The notes beneath the pieces were generated by a model. The model saw only the letters and a list, made by a program, of their open reading frames with translations, had not been told where the DNA came from and ran no database searches. From NCBI GenBank assembly GCA_964623795.1, contig CAZUVI010000001.1:8315-35822 (forward strand): 27,508 bases of DNA, in the 5' to 3' direction. Source of the stretch: an uncultured Candidatus Saccharibacteria bacterium (GTDB lineage: Bacteria > Patescibacteriota > Minisyncoccia > UBA6257 > CAYSDW01). Every line of letters begins with the position of its first letter. Position 1 is the first letter of the stretch. The position numbers were made by a program, and so were the translations under genes. Below are positions 1,351-21,579 of the stretch, piece by piece.

Positions 1351-1515
1351 AGCACTCCTGATGTTGTACGAAAACACGTTGTCTATTTTCCCAGCGCGAA
1401 AATAGCAACTCGCTCTCGGCCGCACTCACGCTGTCGCTTGCGCTCGTCTGGCTTTGCCAGACACCGTGCCCGCTCGGCCTCCGAGACGGTTTTCTTAACA
1501 ACAGTCAGGAGTGCT
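1351..1515. repeat. Nested palindromic intergenic element A (MITE/REP-like)
   Basis: AGCACTCCTGA (1351-1361) is the perfect inverted repeat of TCAGGAGTGCT (1505-1515). Further pairings: TGTTGT/ACAACA, AAAAC/GTTTT. Inner hairpins: CTATTTTC/GAAAATAG, TCTCGG/CCGAGA, GTCTGGC-TTT-GCCAGAC. Confidence 0.7.
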
Positions 1516-5422: not shown

Positions 5423-6160
5423 ATGACTGTTTCCGTACGCACCATCTACGAGAAAAAAAAGAGGGTCCGTCTCAAACTGAAGCTTACGATGCTGGCTGCG
5501 GGACTGCTCGCCGTCCTCGGCGCGTTTTCATATCTAAACTGGGAAAAGAACCTGTTCGAATTCAAGGAAGTGGTGCTGTCGGGCGCGGGTTCCCTTTCTC
5601 GTGAGGAGCTTTTGGGCGGCTTGCCCGGCCAGGGCACGGGGCCCGTCTCGTTCTTCTCGCCGGTACGCGTTTCGCATCCCGCGATCGCCGGCGCGGCGAT
5701 CCATCGCGATTATTTTAATAGAATTTTACGGATCGATATCACGGAGCGCGAACGATACGGCGTTTGGTGCGCTGACGCGTGCTTTTGGTTCGACCGCGAA
5801 GGGATGCTCTTTTCGCCGGCGCCGCGCGCCGAGGGCGCGCTCGTGCGCCGCGTTCGCGACACGACCGGCCGTTCTCTCGCATTGGGCGGGCAGGCGCTTC
5901 CCGGGGACCAGCTCCGTTCGCTCGTGATCGCCTTTGACATGCTGGAACGCGCCCGGCTCACCGTAGAGGAGGTCGTCCTTGAAGACCTCTCGCGCGCGGA
6001 GGCAACCGCCCAGCTTCTCCTCGGCCCGCGCGTCTTGTTCAGCTTGCGCAACGACCCCGCATTTGCCTATGAACCTCTCCTGAACCTTGCCGGAGAGTTG
6101 GAAAAATTGGCCTATATCGATCTCCGGACGGACCAGCGCATCTTCCTCAAATACCGCTGA
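5423..6160 (+). CDS. ftsQ: Cell division protein FtsQ/DivIB-like
   Basis: Basic N-terminus, single TM helix, POTRA-like segment (VVLSGAGSLSREEL...RIDITER), C-terminal YIDLRxxxRIFLK. Confidence 0.7.
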   Translation: MTVSVRTIYEKKKRVRLKLKLTMLAAGLLAVLGAFSYLNWEKNLFEFKEVVLSGAGSLSREELLGGLPGQGTGPVSFFSPVRVSHPAIAGAAIHRDYFNRILRIDITERERYGVWCADACFWFDREGMLFSPAPRAEGALVRRVRDTTGRSLALGGQALPGDQLRSLVIAFDMLERARLTVEEVVLEDLSRAEATAQLLLGPRVLFSLRNDPAFAYEPLLNLAGELEKLAYIDLRTDQRIFLKYR

Positions 6161-6168
6161 ATCGCGGC

Positions 6169-6189
6169 CCTGCCTGCCGGGAGGCATGG
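6169..6189. repeat. Short REP-like hairpin CCTGCCTGCCGGGAGGCATGG
   Basis: TGCCT/AGGCA stem extended by CC/GG, 8 nt after the ftsQ stop. Looks like a variant of a CCTGCCTGCCGGCAGGCAGG-type palindrome. Confidence 0.45.
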
Positions 6190-6214
6190 CCTGCTTGTTC
6201 GCGAGGGCTGTGGA

Positions 6215-6244
6215 TTGCGCCCTGAGGGGGTCGTTTGCTATACT
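6215..6244 (+). promoter_or_regulatory. Sigma70-type promoter for the downstream ncRNA
   Basis: TTGCGC (6215-6220), 18-nt spacer, TG-c-TATACT extended -10 (6239-6244). The structured RNA begins 7 nt downstream. Confidence 0.65.
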
Positions 6245-6251
6245 TACGGTA

Positions 6252-6424
6252 CGACGCGGAGAGACGGCGTCGGTGCTGGGGGCGGGCGACAGGACGCCCG
6301 GCACGGGCTGCCCTAGGAGGAGCAACACGCGGTCGACCGCACTACGGACTACCGACTCCTCCCTCGAACGGAACTGCTCGCTCCCGCACACGATCCACGT
6401 CCCGAACGCCGTCTCTCCCCGTCG
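6252..6424 (+). ncRNA. Structured ~173-nt non-coding RNA, 6S RNA-like rod (identity unconfirmed)
   Basis: Ends pair: GGAGAGACGGCGT (6258-6270) with ACGCCGTCTCTCC (6406-6418), plus CGACG/CGTCG. Then GTGC/GCAC, GGGGGCGGGC/GCTCGCTCCC and GGAGGAG/CTCCTCC. G-U pairs favour the + strand; promoter upstream, terminator downstream. Confidence 0.65.
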
Positions 6425-6479
6425 CTCCTCGCCCTTTTACACCCCAAACTACGGAGCTACTGGCTCCGCTCGCACTTTT

Positions 6480-6512
6480 GAAGCCCCGCCTCGCGGGGCT
6501 TCTCCTTATTTT
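6480..6512 (+). terminator. Intrinsic terminator
   Basis: GAAGCCCCGC-CTC-GCGGGGCTTC followed by TCCTTATTTT. Confidence 0.75.
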
Positions 6513-8410
6513 AATTTGTAGATAAAGATCGACGTGCCGGCGCGCGCGTAGGGCTTATAGGGATCCTGGATCGCGGCGAGCCAGCGATATTCATCCTCGG
6601 GTTTACGCACGAATCCAGGGGCCGTTTTCCCGAACGCGCTCTGGAGCGTGTTCACGGACACCGCAAGCCACCCGATGCCTTCTTCGCGAGGATCATTTTT
6701 TGCCGACCACCACGGAACGAAGGCGGCGCCGAGCTCGTAGCCGGGACTTCCTCCGCCAAAGTAATCCACGGCGATCGTTTCGATATTGTGCCCGCGCGCC
6801 CAGTCGCGAAGCCGATACATGTCCTGGCCCCAGTCATAGTTCGAATCAACCGCGAACCGGTAGCCGTTTTGGACGCCGCCGCCCAACTGGTTGGAATACG
6901 AGAGATAGAAGGGCCAAGCGGCCGCGACTTCGATGAGAAACGCGACGACGAGAGCCGAGAGCGCGAGTGATTTTAGAGAGAGGACGAAGAACGAGCGGAG
7001 CCGGAGCAGGAATTGCACAAAGAGCGTTCGCGGCGAGACCGCCTGCCGCTCGAGCCAACGCCGTACGGCGCCGGTCGCGAGGATATACATGAACGGCAAC
7101 GTTGGCAGGATGTGCCGCACGCCGATGTTCAGATTGCTCCTCACGCTCCATGTCCAGTAGATGAGCACAAAGAGCAGCATCGCGAATTCATAGAAGTTGA
7201 TGGTCAGGTAGTCGCCGAAGCGCGCAGTGCGGCGTGCGATCGCCCGCATGACGCCGATCATGCCAAGAAGCGTTCCGAGCGCGACGAAAACGAGGACGGC
7301 AAGCGGTTCCTTGAGCGCATAGGTTACGGGGAAGTAGTACCAAGAGCCAACGGAGGAAACTTCGCCCAAGAAGTAGCCCGTGTTCCCGCCCGCGGAACGC
7401 TGCACCACCATAAGAACGCCCAAGGCATATTCCGCAAGAGGGCGGAGATAACTTTGCCCCGCCATCCGTATCACAAGATCGGCCGGGCATCGCGCGATGC
7501 GGCACGAGGCCCCCTCCGGCGTCGGCCCGCCGGCATAGGATTCAAGAATGGAGACGGTATCCGAAAGCTGCCGTTCCGCCGGATAGTTCATGCTCACCAT
7601 GGCGTAGACGCCATAGATGAGGATGCCCCCTAAGGCCATAACCATGAGCGTGCGGGACACAAGACGAATGCCGCGGATAAAGAAGGTGGAAATGCGGGTG
7701 AGGGGGGAGATCGCATGCCAATCCCGCCACACGCCGGAGGCATAGAAGACGGCGACCAGCAGGAAGAAATAAGGGACGAGTAGGACGGCGGAGAATTTCA
7801 AGAGCTGGGCGATGCCGAAGCAGGCGCCTGCGAGGAGCAGGCGGCTCGTTTTTTGCTTATAGAGAAAGGCAACGAAGCTCCAGGTAGCGATGAAAACACC
7901 GAATGCGGCGCCGACGTCGGTCGTCACATAATGGCCGTGGGCGAGAAAAGAGGGCGAAAGGGCGACGAAGAGAGCAGGGAAGAATGCCCACCAACGGCCC
8001 ACAAGTTGGGCGGCAAGCAGGTAGATCGAGAGCACGAGGAGGAGCGTGATGGCGATCGGCGCGAGTCGGGACCAGCGGATTATCTTGTGAGCGTCGTTGC
8101 TCGATTCGTAGAGGAACTGCGTACCTATGGTCCACTGGCCGTTCACGTCGCTCTGCCACGAGGGCTTGTCGGTCGGGAAGTTGAGATCGAGCGCGAGAAG
8201 GGGGAGCGCCGAGAGTGCCTTAAGGAGCGGCGGATGTTCGGGGTTCAGGCGATCATCGAGATACTTGACGTAGCTGTAGCCCGCCGGGATGTGCGCGAGC
8301 TCGTCCATGATGGCGGAGTCGTTCACGGCGCCGTAATACAGCAGAGAGCCGGAGGCAAAAAGAAGGGCGCCGAGGAGCATCCATCGCAGAAAGGAAGCGG
8401 CAAAGGGCAT
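6506..8410 (-). CDS. Multi-pass GT-C glycosyltransferase (ArnT/PMT, GT39/GT83-like)
   Basis: DELAHIPAGYSY, RLNPEHPPLLK, SFLAHGHYVTTD, LNIGVRHILP, DSNYDWGQD; many TM helices. Confidence 0.85.
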   Translation of the reverse strand: MPFAASFLRWMLLGALLFASGSLLYYGAVNDSAIMDELAHIPAGYSYVKYLDDRLNPEHPPLLKALSALPLLALDLNFPTDKPSWQSDVNGQWTIGTQFLYESSNDAHKIIRWSRLAPIAITLLLVLSIYLLAAQLVGRWWAFFPALFVALSPSFLAHGHYVTTDVGAAFGVFIATWSFVAFLYKQKTSRLLLAGACFGIAQLLKFSAVLLVPYFFLLVAVFYASGVWRDWHAISPLTRISTFFIRGIRLVSRTLMVMALGGILIYGVYAMVSMNYPAERQLSDTVSILESYAGGPTPEGASCRIARCPADLVIRMAGQSYLRPLAEYALGVLMVVQRSAGGNTGYFLGEVSSVGSWYYFPVTYALKEPLAVLVFVALGTLLGMIGVMRAIARRTARFGDYLTINFYEFAMLLFVLIYWTWSVRSNLNIGVRHILPTLPFMYILATGAVRRWLERQAVSPRTLFVQFLLRLRSFFVLSLKSLALSALVVAFLIEVAAAWPFYLSYSNQLGGGVQNGYRFAVDSNYDWGQDMYRLRDWARGHNIETIAVDYFGGGSPGYELGAAFVPWWSAKNDPREEGIGWLAVSVNTLQSAFGKTAPGFVRKPEDEYRWLAAIQDPYKPYARAGTSIFIYKLK

Positions 8411-8439
8411 ATGATTTCAGTATATCGTTTATAATCAAG

Positions 8440-8781
8440 ATGATGAAGCTTGCTCTTAAGAAACAAAAACCGCTGCACTGGACGCATCACTCGCAAAGCA
8501 AGATGCGCTACTACCGCCTCTCCGAGGCGCGCGTGAAGCGCGTGCTCCGAACGCCGTTCCGCATCGAGGAGGGCATTGTGCCGAAGACGGTCGCCTACAT
8601 GCAGTTGGCCGGCTCCGTAAAGCATCCCTCGGAGATCTGGGCGATGGTGCTCGATGAACCGCAACGGCGGAACGTGATCACCGCATGGCGCTACCCGGGT
8701 AAAAGCCCGGTGCGCAACCCCGTCCCGTTCGCCATCCTCCAAGAGGTTTCGGAATTCATACGCGCCGATCGTGAGGCATAA
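8440..8781 (+). CDS. Conserved hypothetical protein, DUF4258/BrnT-RelE-like pattern
   Basis: WTHHSQSKMRYYRLSEARVKRVLRTP...VITAWRYPG resembles the DUF4258 pattern. TATAAT lies at 8430-8435; the true start may be ATG 8443. Confidence 0.6.
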   Translation: MMKLALKKQKPLHWTHHSQSKMRYYRLSEARVKRVLRTPFRIEEGIVPKTVAYMQLAGSVKHPSEIWAMVLDEPQRRNVITAWRYPGKSPVRNPVPFAILQEVSEFIRADREA

Positions 8782-11081: not shown

Positions 11082-12073
11082 AATTATCCATCGGCATCGT
11101 AGGCCTTCCGAACGTGGGGAAATCCACGCTTTTTCGACTGCTCACGAAGCAGGCCGTGAACGTGGCGAACTATCCCTTCGCGACCATCGACCCGAACGTG
11201 GGCATCGTGCCCGTGCCGGACGAGCGCCTCCTAAAGCTCACCGAACTCTCGAAGTCGAAAAAGACGATCCCTGCCGTCGTGGAGTTTTATGACATTGCCG
11301 GCCTGGTGCGAGGCGCCTCGAAAGGCGAGGGGCTGGGCAACCAGTTCCTTTCGCACATCAAGGAGGTGAACGCCATCGTGCACCTCCTGCGTTGTTTTCC
11401 GGGGAGCGACATCGTCCATATCGAGAACCGCGTCGATCCGATCGCTGACCTCGAGATCATCCACGCCGAGCTTTCGCTCAAGGACCTTGAGGCGGTGGAG
11501 AAGGCGATCGGCCGCGCCGAGTCCGACGCGCGGGGCGGCAAGAAGGAGGCGCTCACGGCCCTCCCCGTCCTTGCGCGCGCGAAGGAGGCCTTGGAGCAGG
11601 GCAGGCAGATCGTCGAGTATGCGAACGATCCCGCCGTACAACCCCTGAACCTCCTTATGGCAAAAAAGCAGCTCTATCTTTTGAACGGTTCAGCGGCGGA
11701 TGTTCCCGAGGCGCTTGCGGCGCGCATCAAAGCGCTCGGCGGCGAACATATCATCGCCGACCTTGCGCACACGGACGCCGTGCCGGAGCTTATTCGCGCG
11801 GCTTACCGCATCCTCGATCTCATCAGCTTCTTTACGACCGGCGAAGATGAGACGCGCGCGTGGACGACGGTTCGCGGCGCCTTGGCGCCAAAAGCCGCCG
11901 GCGAGATCCACTCCGATTTCGAAGAGAAATTCATCCGTGCGGAGGTTATCGAGTGGGAAAAGCTCGTCGAGGCGGGAGGATGGAGCGCCGCGAAGGCCAA
12001 GGGTTGGCTGCGGATCGAAGGCAAGGACTATGCGGTCAAGGACGGCGACGTGATGGTTATACGGCACGGATAA
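11078..12073 (+). CDS. ychF: Redox-regulated ATPase YchF (Obg family)
   Basis: GIVGLPNVGKST, NYPFATIDPN, DIAGLVRGAS-GEGLGNQFL, TGS domain (AAGEIHSDF, VKDGDV). ATGA overlap with the ABC gene. Confidence 0.96.
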   Translation: MKLSIGIVGLPNVGKSTLFRLLTKQAVNVANYPFATIDPNVGIVPVPDERLLKLTELSKSKKTIPAVVEFYDIAGLVRGASKGEGLGNQFLSHIKEVNAIVHLLRCFPGSDIVHIENRVDPIADLEIIHAELSLKDLEAVEKAIGRAESDARGGKKEALTALPVLARAKEALEQGRQIVEYANDPAVQPLNLLMAKKQLYLLNGSAADVPEALAARIKALGGEHIIADLAHTDAVPELIRAAYRILDLISFFTTGEDETRAWTTVRGALAPKAAGEIHSDFEEKFIRAEVIEWEKLVEAGGWSAAKAKGWLRIEGKDYAVKDGDVMVIRHG

Positions 12074-12080
12074 GGGGCGC

Positions 12081-12224
12081 GAGCGCATCCATACCCCTTC
12101 GGGGGTCGGCTCGCCGCGCTCCTGCGGCGCGGCGGCCTTAGCCTCGGCGCCTGTGCTCCGCCTCCGGCGGAGACCAAGCCACAGGCGCCTCCGGAAACCC
12201 TCTCAGGGGTACGAATGCGCTCTT
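12081..12224. mobile_element. 144-bp structured dispersed element, copy B
   Basis: Aligns without gaps to 16544-16687 (18 mismatches). Terminal stem plus inner hairpins; sits 7 nt after the ychF stop between convergent genes. Confidence 0.8.
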
Positions 12225-12245
12225 GATGAGGGGGTAGAAGTTCGC

Positions 12246-14192: not shown

Positions 14193-16544
14193 ATGACGCT
14201 TTTTTTGATCATCATAAGTTTTCTTGCGGCCGCGCTTGTCCCGCTGGTCATTTGGTACGCGTGGAACATCCGCCGCCGGCTCTTTTTCGAGAACTTCAAG
14301 CTTCAGCTCTACCTCATCCGTATTCCGCTCGCCTCGAAAGAGGGAAAGGACCCGAAGGCGGAGGTCAACCTTTCGGAACAACTTTTTAATGCGCTCGCGT
14401 CCTTAAAGCGGCCGTTCGTGTTCGAAGCGGCGGTCTCGCACGTCGGCGAAGACATCTGCTTTTACATCGCGGTTCCCCGGGCACATGGCGGCATGGCGGC
14501 GCGACAGATCCAGGGCCTCTTTCCCGATGCGCAGGTTGAGGAAACGGGGGACTACAATCTTTTTAACCCGCACGGCGAGGCGCAGGGCGCCTCCGTAACC
14601 CAAAAACATCACTATGCACTGCCTATTCGAACGTATCAGGACATCGGCGGCGAAACGTTCGCGCCGATCTTAAGCGGTCTCTCCAAGATCAACACTGCCG
14701 GCGAAGGAGCGGCCATCCAGGTGATCGCACGGCCTGCCTCGGGAGAGGTGAAAAAAACGATAGCTGCGGCGCTGCAGCGGCTTAAGGCGGGCGAAACGCT
14801 CGAGAGGGTGCTCTCCTCGGGCGGCGGAGCCGCGCTTTCTTCGGCGCTCAAGGAGGCGTTCCCGGGCAAGCGGAAAAAGGAGGGAGAGCCGCGCGTGGTG
14901 GACGAGCAGGCCGTGCACGCGCTTGAAACGAAGCTCGCAAAGCCGCTTTTTTCGGTGAACGTCCGCGTTCTCGCTTCCGCGCCGTCGCAGTATCAGGCGG
15001 ACGCGATCCTGGACTCGATCGCGAGCGCCTTTACCCAGTTCTCCGCGCCGAACCGGAACGAGCTCAAGGCGGTCACGCCGCGCAATCTCGAGAGGTTCAT
15101 CTATCAGTATTCGTTCCGGGAGTTCGATCCTTCCCAGGCGATGACGCTCACGAGCGAGGAGCTTGCAAGCGTCTTCCATCTGCCCACGCCGTTCCTCGAG
15201 GTGCCCAAGATCAAATGGCTCAAGTCCAGGGAGGCCGCGCCGCCGACGGCTCTTTCCGCGGCGGGCGTGCCGATCGGGGAAAGCGTGTTCCGCGGAGAGC
15301 GGAAGACGGTGCGCGTGAGCGACGAGGACCGCCGCCGTCATGTCTATATCATCGGTCAGACCGGCACCGGAAAATCCGTACTGCTCGCGAACATGCTCGC
15401 GGACGACATAGAGCGGGGCAAGGGCGCCGCCATCATCGATCCGCACGGCGATCTCGTTGAGGCAGTGATGCGGCTCATCCCCGAGGAGCGGCAGAACGAC
15501 GTGATCGTGCTCGATCCAGGCGACCTCATGCGGCCCGTGGGCCTCAATATGCTCGATGTCGACCCCATGCGGCCGGAGGAGAAGACCTTCGTGGTGAACG
15601 AGTTGCAGGGAATCTTCAATAAGCTGTTCCCGCCCGAAACGATGGGTCCCATGTTCGAGCAGTACATGCGGAACGCGCTTCTGCTTCTCATGGAAGATAC
15701 GGCGGAGCCGGCGACGCTTATGGAGGTGCCGCGGGTCTTCACCGACAGCGCTTTTCGCGCCCGCAAGCTCGCGCGCATCACGAATCCGGCGGTTGTGGAC
15801 TTCTGGGAGAAAGAGGCGGTCAAAGCTGGCGGCGAGGCTTCGCTCGCGAACATCACGCCCTACGTCACCTCGAAGTTCAACAACTTCATCGCGAACGACT
15901 ATCTCCGTCCCATTATCAGCCAGCCCGCGTCCGCGTTCCGTTTCCGCGAGGTGATGGACGAGGGGAAGATACTGCTTGTGAACCTCTCGAAGGGCCGGAT
16001 AGGCGACATCAACGCGAACCTGCTTGGCATGATCATTGTCGGCAAGCTTCTCATGGCCGCGCTCTCTCGCGTGGACATCGCCGATCCGGAGAAGCGGCGC
16101 GACTTCAACCTCTACATCGACGAGTTCCAGAACTTCACGACCGACTCCATTGCCGTCATTCTTTCGGAGGCGCGGAAATATCGTCTGGACCTTGTCATCG
16201 CGCATCAGTTCATCGCGCAGCTTACGGAGAAGATCCGGGATGCGGTTTTCGGCAACGTGGGTTCGATGGTTTCATTCCGCGTCGGCGTGCAGGACGCGGA
16301 GTTCCTCGAGAAGCAGTTTACTCCGACCTTCACGAAGCAGGACCTTATCAACATCGATAACTTCAACGCCTACGCGAAGCTTCTCATAAATGGGCAGACC
16401 AGCCAGCCCTTCAATATCCGCACCATTCCTCCGCTTCGCGGCAACCCGGACCGCGTGGAGCGGATCAAGGAGCTTTCCCGCGCGCGCTACGGCCGCGACC
16501 GCCATGAAGTGGAAGCGGCGGCACTGAAGCGGATAAGGGAATAG
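14193..16544 (+). CDS. VirD4/TraD/HerA-FtsK-type ATPase with N-terminal TM anchor (DUF87/TrwB-like)
   Basis: RRRHVYIIGQTGTGKS (Walker A), IIDPHGDL, LYIDEFQNF (Walker B), EARKYRLDLVIAHQFIAQL, AVFGNVGS. Confidence 0.88.
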   Translation: MTLFLIIISFLAAALVPLVIWYAWNIRRRLFFENFKLQLYLIRIPLASKEGKDPKAEVNLSEQLFNALASLKRPFVFEAAVSHVGEDICFYIAVPRAHGGMAARQIQGLFPDAQVEETGDYNLFNPHGEAQGASVTQKHHYALPIRTYQDIGGETFAPILSGLSKINTAGEGAAIQVIARPASGEVKKTIAAALQRLKAGETLERVLSSGGGAALSSALKEAFPGKRKKEGEPRVVDEQAVHALETKLAKPLFSVNVRVLASAPSQYQADAILDSIASAFTQFSAPNRNELKAVTPRNLERFIYQYSFREFDPSQAMTLTSEELASVFHLPTPFLEVPKIKWLKSREAAPPTALSAAGVPIGESVFRGERKTVRVSDEDRRRHVYIIGQTGTGKSVLLANMLADDIERGKGAAIIDPHGDLVEAVMRLIPEERQNDVIVLDPGDLMRPVGLNMLDVDPMRPEEKTFVVNELQGIFNKLFPPETMGPMFEQYMRNALLLLMEDTAEPATLMEVPRVFTDSAFRARKLARITNPAVVDFWEKEAVKAGGEASLANITPYVTSKFNNFIANDYLRPIISQPASAFRFREVMDEGKILLVNLSKGRIGDINANLLGMIIVGKLLMAALSRVDIADPEKRRDFNLYIDEFQNFTTDSIAVILSEARKYRLDLVIAHQFIAQLTEKIRDAVFGNVGSMVSFRVGVQDAEFLEKQFTPTFTKQDLINIDNFNAYAKLLINGQTSQPFNIRTIPPLRGNPDRVERIKELSRARYGRDRHEVEAAALKRIRE

Positions 16545-16687
16545 AGCACATCCGCGCCCTTTCAGGGGTCGGCTCACCGCGCTCCTGCGGCGCGGCGGCC
16601 TTCGCCTCGACGCCTGTGCTCCGCCTCCGGCGGAGACCAAGCCACAGGCGCCTGCGGAAACCCCTTCAAGGGCGCGGACGTGCTCTT
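16544..16687. mobile_element. 144-bp structured dispersed element, copy C
   Basis: Second copy of 12081-12224. Begins in the last base of the ATPase TAG, again between convergent genes. Confidence 0.8.
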
Positions 16688-16724
16688 AGGGAGGGGGGAC
16701 GAAGAACAGAATGCCCGCCCGGTT

Positions 16725-21223: not shown

Positions 21224-21229
21224 CTCGCG

Positions 21230-21579
21230 GTCGGTGGCCGATACGCGGGATTCTGTCATAGTCGCGTAAAGCGACCGGGACGGCAATTTATCTGGGCTCC
21301 GCATTACTGCGGGGCTCGAGCGGCACTCCCCGTAAGGGGCGCGGCCTTGCACTCGGTAAGGATTTGGCCGTTTCACCTCCGCTTTTTTATCCCTATAGCG
21401 GAGTTGGACCTTCGAGCTTGGGATGGGGTCCTCCCGAAGGTTTCCCCTCGGGACGTCACTGTTCGCACCTCTGCATTGCTGCTGACGGCTGTTAGCCGCT
21501 ACCGTTCCCCGCCGAAGCGGGGGAGTGTCCCGACGTTCCTCCCTGCCGTGAAGGCAGAGTAGCCGTCTGGACCACCAAC
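21230..21579 (-). ncRNA. rnpB: RNase P RNA (catalytic subunit), atypical architecture
   Basis: Minus strand shows P1 GUUGGUGGU/GCCACCGAC, P2 GACGGC/GCCGUC, GAGGAACGUCGGGAC (CR-I), GUGCGAACAGUGA (CR-II), GGUGAAACGG (CR-III), AGAUAAAUUGC (CR-IV), GACAGAAUCCCGCGUA (CR-V); near-consensus promoter upstream. Confidence 0.92.

Follow-up and report, generated by a model that had tools for sequence, protein, structure and literature searches.

A probable gene for a structured non-coding RNA of an uncatalogued family in a narrow clade of Liptonbacteria-like Patescibacteria

The DNA examined here, referred to below as the window, is a stretch of 27,508 nucleotides (nt) from an uncultured bacterium deposited as Candidatus Saccharibacteria (assembly GCA_964623795.1, contig CAZUVI010000001.1, positions 8,315 to 35,822 of the forward strand), and all coordinates are window positions. 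It contains an intergenic gap of 345 bp (6161-6505) between two convergent open reading frames (ORFs), one at 5423-6160 on the + strand and one at 6506-8410 on the - strand. Judged from comparative sequence analysis, the segment 6215-6512 is probably an independent + strand gene for a structured non-coding RNA, which belongs to an uncatalogued family found in a narrow Liptonbacteria-like clade of the Patescibacteria. It carries the features by which small RNA genes are generally recognised: a promoter of its own, an intrinsic terminator, no ORF and compensatory changes in its structure. The - strand neighbour is a GT39/PMT_2 glycosyltransferase gene, and the upstream + strand gene gave no match in a Pfam search, so that its earlier name, ftsQ, is unverified. 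An earlier note on this DNA had described the gap as free of credible ORFs; the mechanical ORFs that cross it were without Pfam matches, and their frames are broken by indels, as set out below. The genome to which the window belongs (G000, termed here the own genome) comprises 720 kb in 111 contigs, is 96.5% complete and has a GC content of ~60%. For close comparison the only other species of the family, a congener (G001), was used, and for distant comparison the contigs L075, L076, L077 and L081, the last of which is cut by the contig end within the RNA. The sequencing runs SRR22388212, ERR15087765 and SRR25547260 underlie L075-L077.

Upstream of the RNA, a candidate -35 box, TTGCGC (6215-6220, +), is followed after an 18-nt spacer by the extended -10 element TGcTATACT (6236-6244, +). 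The -35 box is kept in G001 and has the equivalents TTGCGT in L075, TTGCGC in L077 and TTGACA in L081; the homologous -10 elements read TGgTATGCT, TGgTATGAT, TATGCT and TGcTATAAT. A simple consensus promoter scan did not list this promoter because its -35 box is weak. RNase P RNA and many transfer RNA (tRNA) genes in the own genome have the same layout, TTGnnn-N17/18-TAnnnT, 6-8 nt ahead of their mature 5' ends, which supports the extended -10 promoter that the earlier note had placed in the gap. From the geometry of promoter and terminator we infer transcription itself and a primary transcript of ~262 nt (6251-6512, +), which would start 7 nt past the -10 element and end at the U-tract. The intrinsic terminator (6480-6512, +) consists of a 10-bp GC-rich stem (6480-6502) and a U-tract running to 6512, and abuts the GT39 stop codon. 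Its stem has changed in sequence in G001 with pairing retained, and the U-tract is present on the + strand only in all homologues that are not cut by the contig end. The small hairpin CGGAGC/GCTCCG that had been described before the terminator was found at 6452-6468.

Two observations on other RNA genes of the own genome belong beside this promoter layout. In many tRNA genes (e.g. tRNA-Met on contig C9, tRNA-Lys on C25 and tRNA-Pro on C64) the TTGnnn-N17/18-TAnnnT promoter ends 6-10 nt from the mature 5' end, which implies very short tRNA leaders. The RNase P RNA gene (21227-21578, -) has a TTGACA-N17-TATGAT promoter 7 nt upstream; its score against RF00010, 91.3 bits, lies below the gathering score of 100, so that a standard Rfam scan overlooks the gene.

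The rod-shaped body of the RNA spans 173 nt (6252-6424) and is made up of helix P1, an internal loop, helix P2, a junction with a side hairpin and an apex stem. The two arms of P1 (6252-6270, CGACG-C-GGAGAGACGGCGU, and 6406-6424, both +) form a 19-nt inverted repeat that is 95% complementary; a single C.C mismatch interrupts them, and they include a perfect 13-bp run. P2 (6273-6288 with 6375-6389, +) contains G-U pairs and was assigned, as an element of the predicted fold, by comparison with G001 and from the pair table over five homologues, which also supports P1. On the 5' side of the junction stands the side hairpin GCCCG-GCA-CGGGC (6296-6308, +), in which C-G is replaced by U-G and G-C by G-U in G001; a hairpin of different sequence occupies this position in L075 and L076, and none is found in L077. 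The apex (6316-6362, +) is closed by P3, GGAGGAG (6316-6322) paired with CUCCUCC (6356-6362), which encloses CAACAC, GCGG...CCGA and, in the minimum-energy fold, two small hairpins. The 3' junction strand CUCGAACGGAACU (6363-6375, +) has, by alignment, a conserved purine-rich core ending in GAAC or GAAU. In every homologue the junction is unpaired, its 5' strand over 11-31 nt and its 3' strand over 13-18 nt. An asymmetric 3'-side insertion with a mini-hairpin (6390-6406, +) is present in the own and G001 RNAs only and is absent from L075, L076 and L077. With these elements, the ends joined by a 13-bp perfect helix, the second helix with G-U pairs, the central hairpin and the GGAGGAG/CTCCTCC stem capped by two small hairpins were all recovered as the earlier note had drawn them.

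Beyond the rod, a pyrimidine-rich tail (6425-6451, +), unpaired in the predicted folds, carries the motif (G)YCCUUUUACA at 6432-6441. It is followed by the hairpin CGGAGCU-ACU-GGCUCCG (6452-6468, +), whose GGAGC/GCUCC stem occurs in four of five homologues, and by CGCAC (6471-6475, +), which reads CGCAC or CGUAC in all homologues. The rod has a minimum free energy of -96.8 kcal/mol, against -75.3 +/- 4.3 for shuffled sequences (z -5.05; none of 200 shuffles folded as well), the whole 262-nt transcript reaches a z score of -5.7, and the homologous RNAs range from -3.2 to -3.6. Pairing of the tail with the 3' junction strand as a pseudoknot was considered and rejected, as it is a perfect 7-bp match in L075 only and is not conserved. 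A look-alike of the tail, CCCUUUUACAC on contig C54, was likewise set aside; it lies in an ordinary 5' leader and probably reflects chance.

Selection on the element was gauged against G001, in which it occupies the same site with 88% identity. As a reference, four-fold degenerate sites of both flanking genes (461 sites) show 71% identity between the two species. Identity was higher than this in the rod (88.6%, Fisher p = 1.5e-6), in the apex (6313-6361; 47 of 49 columns identical, p = 3e-5) and in the tail (6427-6479; 88.9%, p = 0.004), and lower in the spacer before the promoter (49%, p = 0.002). The terminator, at 62% identity (p = 0.25), has its hairpin kept by compensatory changes. These values point to purifying selection on rod, apex and tail. 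Wherever a base pair differs between the two species, pairing on the + strand is preserved: six are changes from G-U to G-C or A-U, one is a swap of A-U for G-C in P1, and the C.C mismatch of P1 becomes U.G. Three indels of 2, 1 and 1 nt within the RNA break every reading frame, and there is therefore no coding frame.

A protein search with the upstream gene recovered uncultured relatives at 58-63% identity, in which the gene order is the same: SerRS, Alr, the upstream gene, a gap of 260-270 nt and the convergent GT39 gene. Homologous RNAs were located in these gaps at 3798-3957 in L075, 3794-3953 in L076, 3290-3422 in L077 and from 1131 in L081, each with a -10/-35 pair 6-7 nt before P1; in L081 this promoter is a perfect TTGACA-N18-TGcTATAAT. 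The homologues share the 5' end (A/G)CGACGNGGAGRG, a 3' junction strand that is rich in purines and ends in GAAC, and the apex GGAGGAG-(C/A)AACAC-GCGG...CCGA-CUCCUCC, which is the same in L075 and L076; in L077 the stem is GAGGC/GCCUC instead. The conserved motifs are thus GGAGGAG/CUCCUCC, AACAC, GAAC and the tail motif GUCCUUUUACA, and the tail sequence CCUUUUACA does not vary among the five full-length homologues. P2 strands are unrelated in sequence among L075, L076 and L077, with pairing retained.

Covariation was examined in the three distant homologues L075, L076 and L077 with a model-based alignment; MAFFT alignments of all homologues misplaced the interior, and anchor-based and model-based alignments were used in their place. 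In the three sequences 98.8% of helix cells are paired. Nine pairs are changed on both sides, compared with 3.5 +/- 1.5 in shuffles, none of which (0 of 500) reached nine, and slid-alignment controls gave ~50% paired cells and at most one pair changed on both sides. A model built from these three homologues only (R3) was searched against the whole 720-kb own genome and returned 6269-6406 (+) as its sole match (27.9 bits, E 0.0012). A comparison with relatives had been suggested earlier, and it yielded both syntenic homologues and covarying helices. The claim of the earlier note that an unannotated, promoter-driven structured RNA lies in the gap is thus strengthened by selection, pairing-preserving changes, frame-breaking indels and homologues at the syntenic site.

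Two observations concern the contigs themselves. In L081, between the conserved GGCTGTGGATTGAC and the TTGACA -35 box of the RNA gene (L081:990-1110), there is an insertion of ~80 bp whose inverted ends CCCCGTTAGAGGC...GCCTCTAAACGGGG are perfect; TTGAC is duplicated, and the insertion has the appearance of a palindromic element that entered the -35 box and recreated it. The closest named relative is labelled Candidatus Liptonbacteria, and the species-representative contig of the own organism is titled 'Candidatus Saccharibacteria'. The RNA region is identical on inspection, from promoter to terminator, in L073 (CAYSDW010000041.1) and L084 (GCA_016182115.1, JACOYA010000046.1), which are titled 'uncultured Candidatus Saccharibacteria bacterium' and 'Candidatus Liptonbacteria bacterium', respectively, and one of these public labels is probably wrong.

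Within the own genome the element is single-copy, and outside its small clade it was not recovered. Model R3 had no match in 150 other genomes of the order, and a model of the own and G001 sequences (R1) found no homologue in 150 genomes of the order or in 26 syntenic loci of other families. When the rod was compared by BLASTN with 400 genomes of the order, G001 alone was returned, the short matches inspected being simple repeats or coding DNA. Pattern searches for the tail (400 genomes of the order) and the apex (250 genomes of the class), and of viral contigs, led back to the own genus only. Metagenomes gave no relative in a protein-guided scan and no match to a 22-mer from the apex; against the genome collection this 22-mer matched G001 and, by chance, one coding region of an alphaproteobacterium. 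Altogether, searches of more than 30 further families of the order did not recover the RNA. In most families other than this one, only 0-100 nt separate the upstream gene from a convergent gene, so that the two abut. In the next tier of relatives by GT39 identity (54-57%), the flanking genes of L086 and L087 overlap without a gap, and L085 has an AT-rich gap of 405 nt with unrelated hairpins. The RNA therefore originated, or entered by insertion, in the common ancestor of a small clade. Collecting homologues downstream of 'ftsQ' in genomes of the candidate phyla radiation (CPR), as had been recommended, showed them to be confined to one small clade. The term 'new class' is apt for a new RNA family and holds in no wider sense. 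One of the unrelated hairpins of L085 (3650-3735, -; ~78 nt; 57% GT39 identity) has the loop UUCCUCCCUCGAUAGAAC, which is close to CUCCUCCCUCGAACGGAAC of the own RNA; this likeness could be chance or the remnant of a remote homologue.

Several observations weigh against the reading as an independent + strand RNA gene. The - strand of the rod folds at least as well (z -5.3), and owing to its higher G content it equals or surpasses the + strand in each of the five homologues; folding energy alone therefore gives no strand. Read on the + strand, P1 contains A.C mismatches in L075 and L076, which would be G.U pairs on the - strand. The alignment used for covariation was fitted to the model, which favours structure, and five or six sequences are all that is known. 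For the tail, the complement of its motif occurs in the own genome at chance frequency, and predicted duplexes of the tail with the start regions of its neighbour genes were no more favourable in energy than those of shuffled tails. The assignment to the + strand is based on the promoters, the U-tracts and the changes between the own and G001 stems, six of which would be A.C mismatches in one species if read on the - strand.

The earlier note had offered 6S RNA as a possible identity. The RNA would then be a very divergent open-promoter mimic that sequesters RNA polymerase holoenzyme, with the junction as its bubble and P1 and P2 as the downstream duplex; this seems unlikely, and 6S RNA as an identity is not supported. 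Like 6S RNA (SsrS; RF00013, and 6S-Flavo, RF01685), it is a stand-alone, mostly double-stranded rod of ~170-190 nt with a strong predicted promoter and a helix-flanked unpaired region, the junction strands being unpaired in all homologues, and the own and G001 RNAs share with 6S RNA a small hairpin on the 3' side. The role also appears unfilled, as models for 6S RNA had no match in the whole own genome, and 41 genomes drawn from 32 families of the order gave none over the cut-off; this absence leaves the role open and is no positive evidence for a 6S-like RNA. Against it stands the failure of any 6S model to match the RNA or its homologues: RF00013 and 6S-Flavo gave no match in 6100-6600 at E values up to 10 with lax filters, nor in L075-L077 at E values up to 1. 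Across all 4227 Rfam families, at gathering as well as lax thresholds, the locus and its homologues gave nothing but terminator-like noise, and no match to 6S, 6S-Flavo, signal recognition particle (SRP) RNA or transfer-messenger RNA (tmRNA) was obtained at the locus. The architecture differs too. In the 6S RNAs of Escherichia coli and Bacillus subtilis the mimicry of the -35 region needs a long terminal stem of ~20 bp or more, whereas here the junction lies near the tip, with a stem of just 5-7 bp and small hairpins past it, and the 5' strand forms its own hairpin in four of five homologues. The conserved single-stranded tail outside the rod and the second hairpin have no counterpart in 6S RNA, and 6S RNA is usually widely conserved, unlike the present RNA with its range of one small clade. 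That the locus encodes a small protein, a divergent form of SRP RNA or some other known housekeeping RNA can practically be discounted. Mechanical ORFs of 96 and 144 amino acids do cross the region, and neither the small nor the large SRP RNA model (RF00169, RF01854) matched anywhere in the own genome, which would leave that place vacant. However, the indels break the frames and no start codon is conserved, tmRNA (contig C14, 138.8 bits) and RNase P RNA (at the - strand locus given above) are encoded elsewhere, and neither Ffh nor FtsY was found in the own genome: PF00448, PF02978 and TIGR00064 were negative, and no DTAGR or TKxDG..KGG motif was present in six frames, with SecY found as a positive control. 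SRP RNA was ruled out because Ffh and FtsY were not found. The same absence of Ffh, FtsY and SRP RNA was seen in 31 genomes of the order, 61 of the class and 81 of the phylum, the single match in the phylum being a Mur ligase; they were thus found in 0 of about 170 genomes sampled. The absence of two SRP subunits in many CPR bacteria has been described (PMC8080830), so that the loss as such is already known; its extent here is striking.

Selection might instead act on the DNA or on the element itself, if the locus were a fixed copy of a palindromic, hairpin-forming mobile repeat of the kind common in Patescibacteria, a reading that we consider improbable. Both strands fold well, the flanking genes of most other families abut so that the element is an insertion relative to them, L081 has its separate palindromic insertion right at the -35 box, and other nested palindromes lie behind genes in the window (1351-1515, 12067-12234 and 16530-16697). 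Like these repeats of the own genome and the Rickettsia palindromic elements, the locus is a nested palindrome of 140-175 bp just behind a gene. It differs from them in being single-copy, in sharing no sequence likeness with the other palindromes of the window and in being absent elsewhere in the 400 genomes of the order, the 250 of the class and the viral contigs. It also keeps one syntenic site over ~60% protein identity with its promoter and terminator at fixed distances, has conserved unpaired letters and a conserved tail outside the palindrome, and its own/G001 stem changes are of the G-U type on the + strand only. As a separate matter, two of the palindromes in the window are 168-nt copies of one another, 85% identical and unrelated to the RNA gene. 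A role in cis was also weighed, in which the locus would be a hairpin barrier, an insulator or a 3' untranslated element between the SerRS-Alr-upstream gene operon and GT39, possibly the - strand 3' untranslated region of GT39 itself. The element always lies between the same convergent genes with its terminator against the GT39 stop codon, the - strand fold is very stable, and no U-tract follows the terminator hairpin on the - strand, so that GT39 transcripts may enter the rod. Such a role is nonetheless quite improbable in view of a + strand promoter conserved 6-7 nt before P1 in six of six sequences, of selection on loop and tail sequences that a mere barrier would not need, and of sister lineages with abutting or overlapping genes that do without the element.

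As an independent RNA gene, the locus would work as follows. RNA polymerase would start near 6251 from the extended -10 promoter of sigma-70 type and stop near 6512 at the intrinsic terminator. The product would be stable, act in trans and have two parts: the 173-nt rod, with its very stable fold, and a pyrimidine-rich tail without structure that leads into a small hairpin. The rod would most likely provide stability and a docking surface, and the working parts would likely be the invariant unpaired letters AACAC and GAAC and above all the tail, GUCCUUUUACA...CGCAC. The RNA may bind a protein with the rod as a scaffold, or its pyrimidine-rich tail may pair with purine-rich ribosome-binding sites of the AAAAGGA type; both modes fit. 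Trans-acting small RNAs of ~90-150 nt with exposed pyrimidine-rich seeds are known from RsaE/RoxS of the Firmicutes and the streptococcal csRNAs. The present RNA resembles them in having its own promoter, a Rho-independent terminator and an unpaired pyrimidine stretch beside terminal hairpins that could pair with ribosome-binding sites. Unlike it, those RNAs lack a 173-nt rod and carry a CCCC box, whereas the motif here is UCCUUUUACA, and no target was found for it.

A further proposal is that the RNA is a translation-directed mimic that titrates ribosome-binding sites or 30S subunits and so serves as a clade-specific global brake on translation; this is a long shot. The apex GGAGGAG/CUCCUCC would copy a Shine-Dalgarno/anti-Shine-Dalgarno duplex, and the invariant exposed tail UCCUUU(U), which is like 16S ends of the B. 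subtilis type, would copy the 3' end of 16S ribosomal RNA. The GT39 gene may be relevant here. TATACT stands ~9 nt before its ATG (8410-8450, -, in the window; 5925 in L076, 5391 in L077 and 1501 in L084), and its mRNA is probably leaderless for this reason. Its first codons, AUG(U/C)CCUU, resemble the tail motif G(U/C)CCUUUU in the same sense, and the variable position is C in both in the own genome and U in both in other lineages. This likeness hinges on a single change and may be due to chance; in the mimic proposal it would fit competition for one binding partner.

The RNA can be described as a well-defined object, with a predicted promoter, ends, helices and invariant letters that are exact, and its narrow distribution limits its general importance. 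A further lesson is that a rod shape by itself is an unreliable basis for '6S-like' calls in this phylum. Protein regulators are few in the tiny genomes of Patescibacteria, and the order yielded no recognisable 6S RNA; a conserved structured RNA with a strong predicted promoter in such a genome is therefore probably needed, and the one described here probably does something that the cell requires. Should the mimic proposal be true, it would act as a global translation brake in a genome with very few regulators and no detectable 6S RNA.

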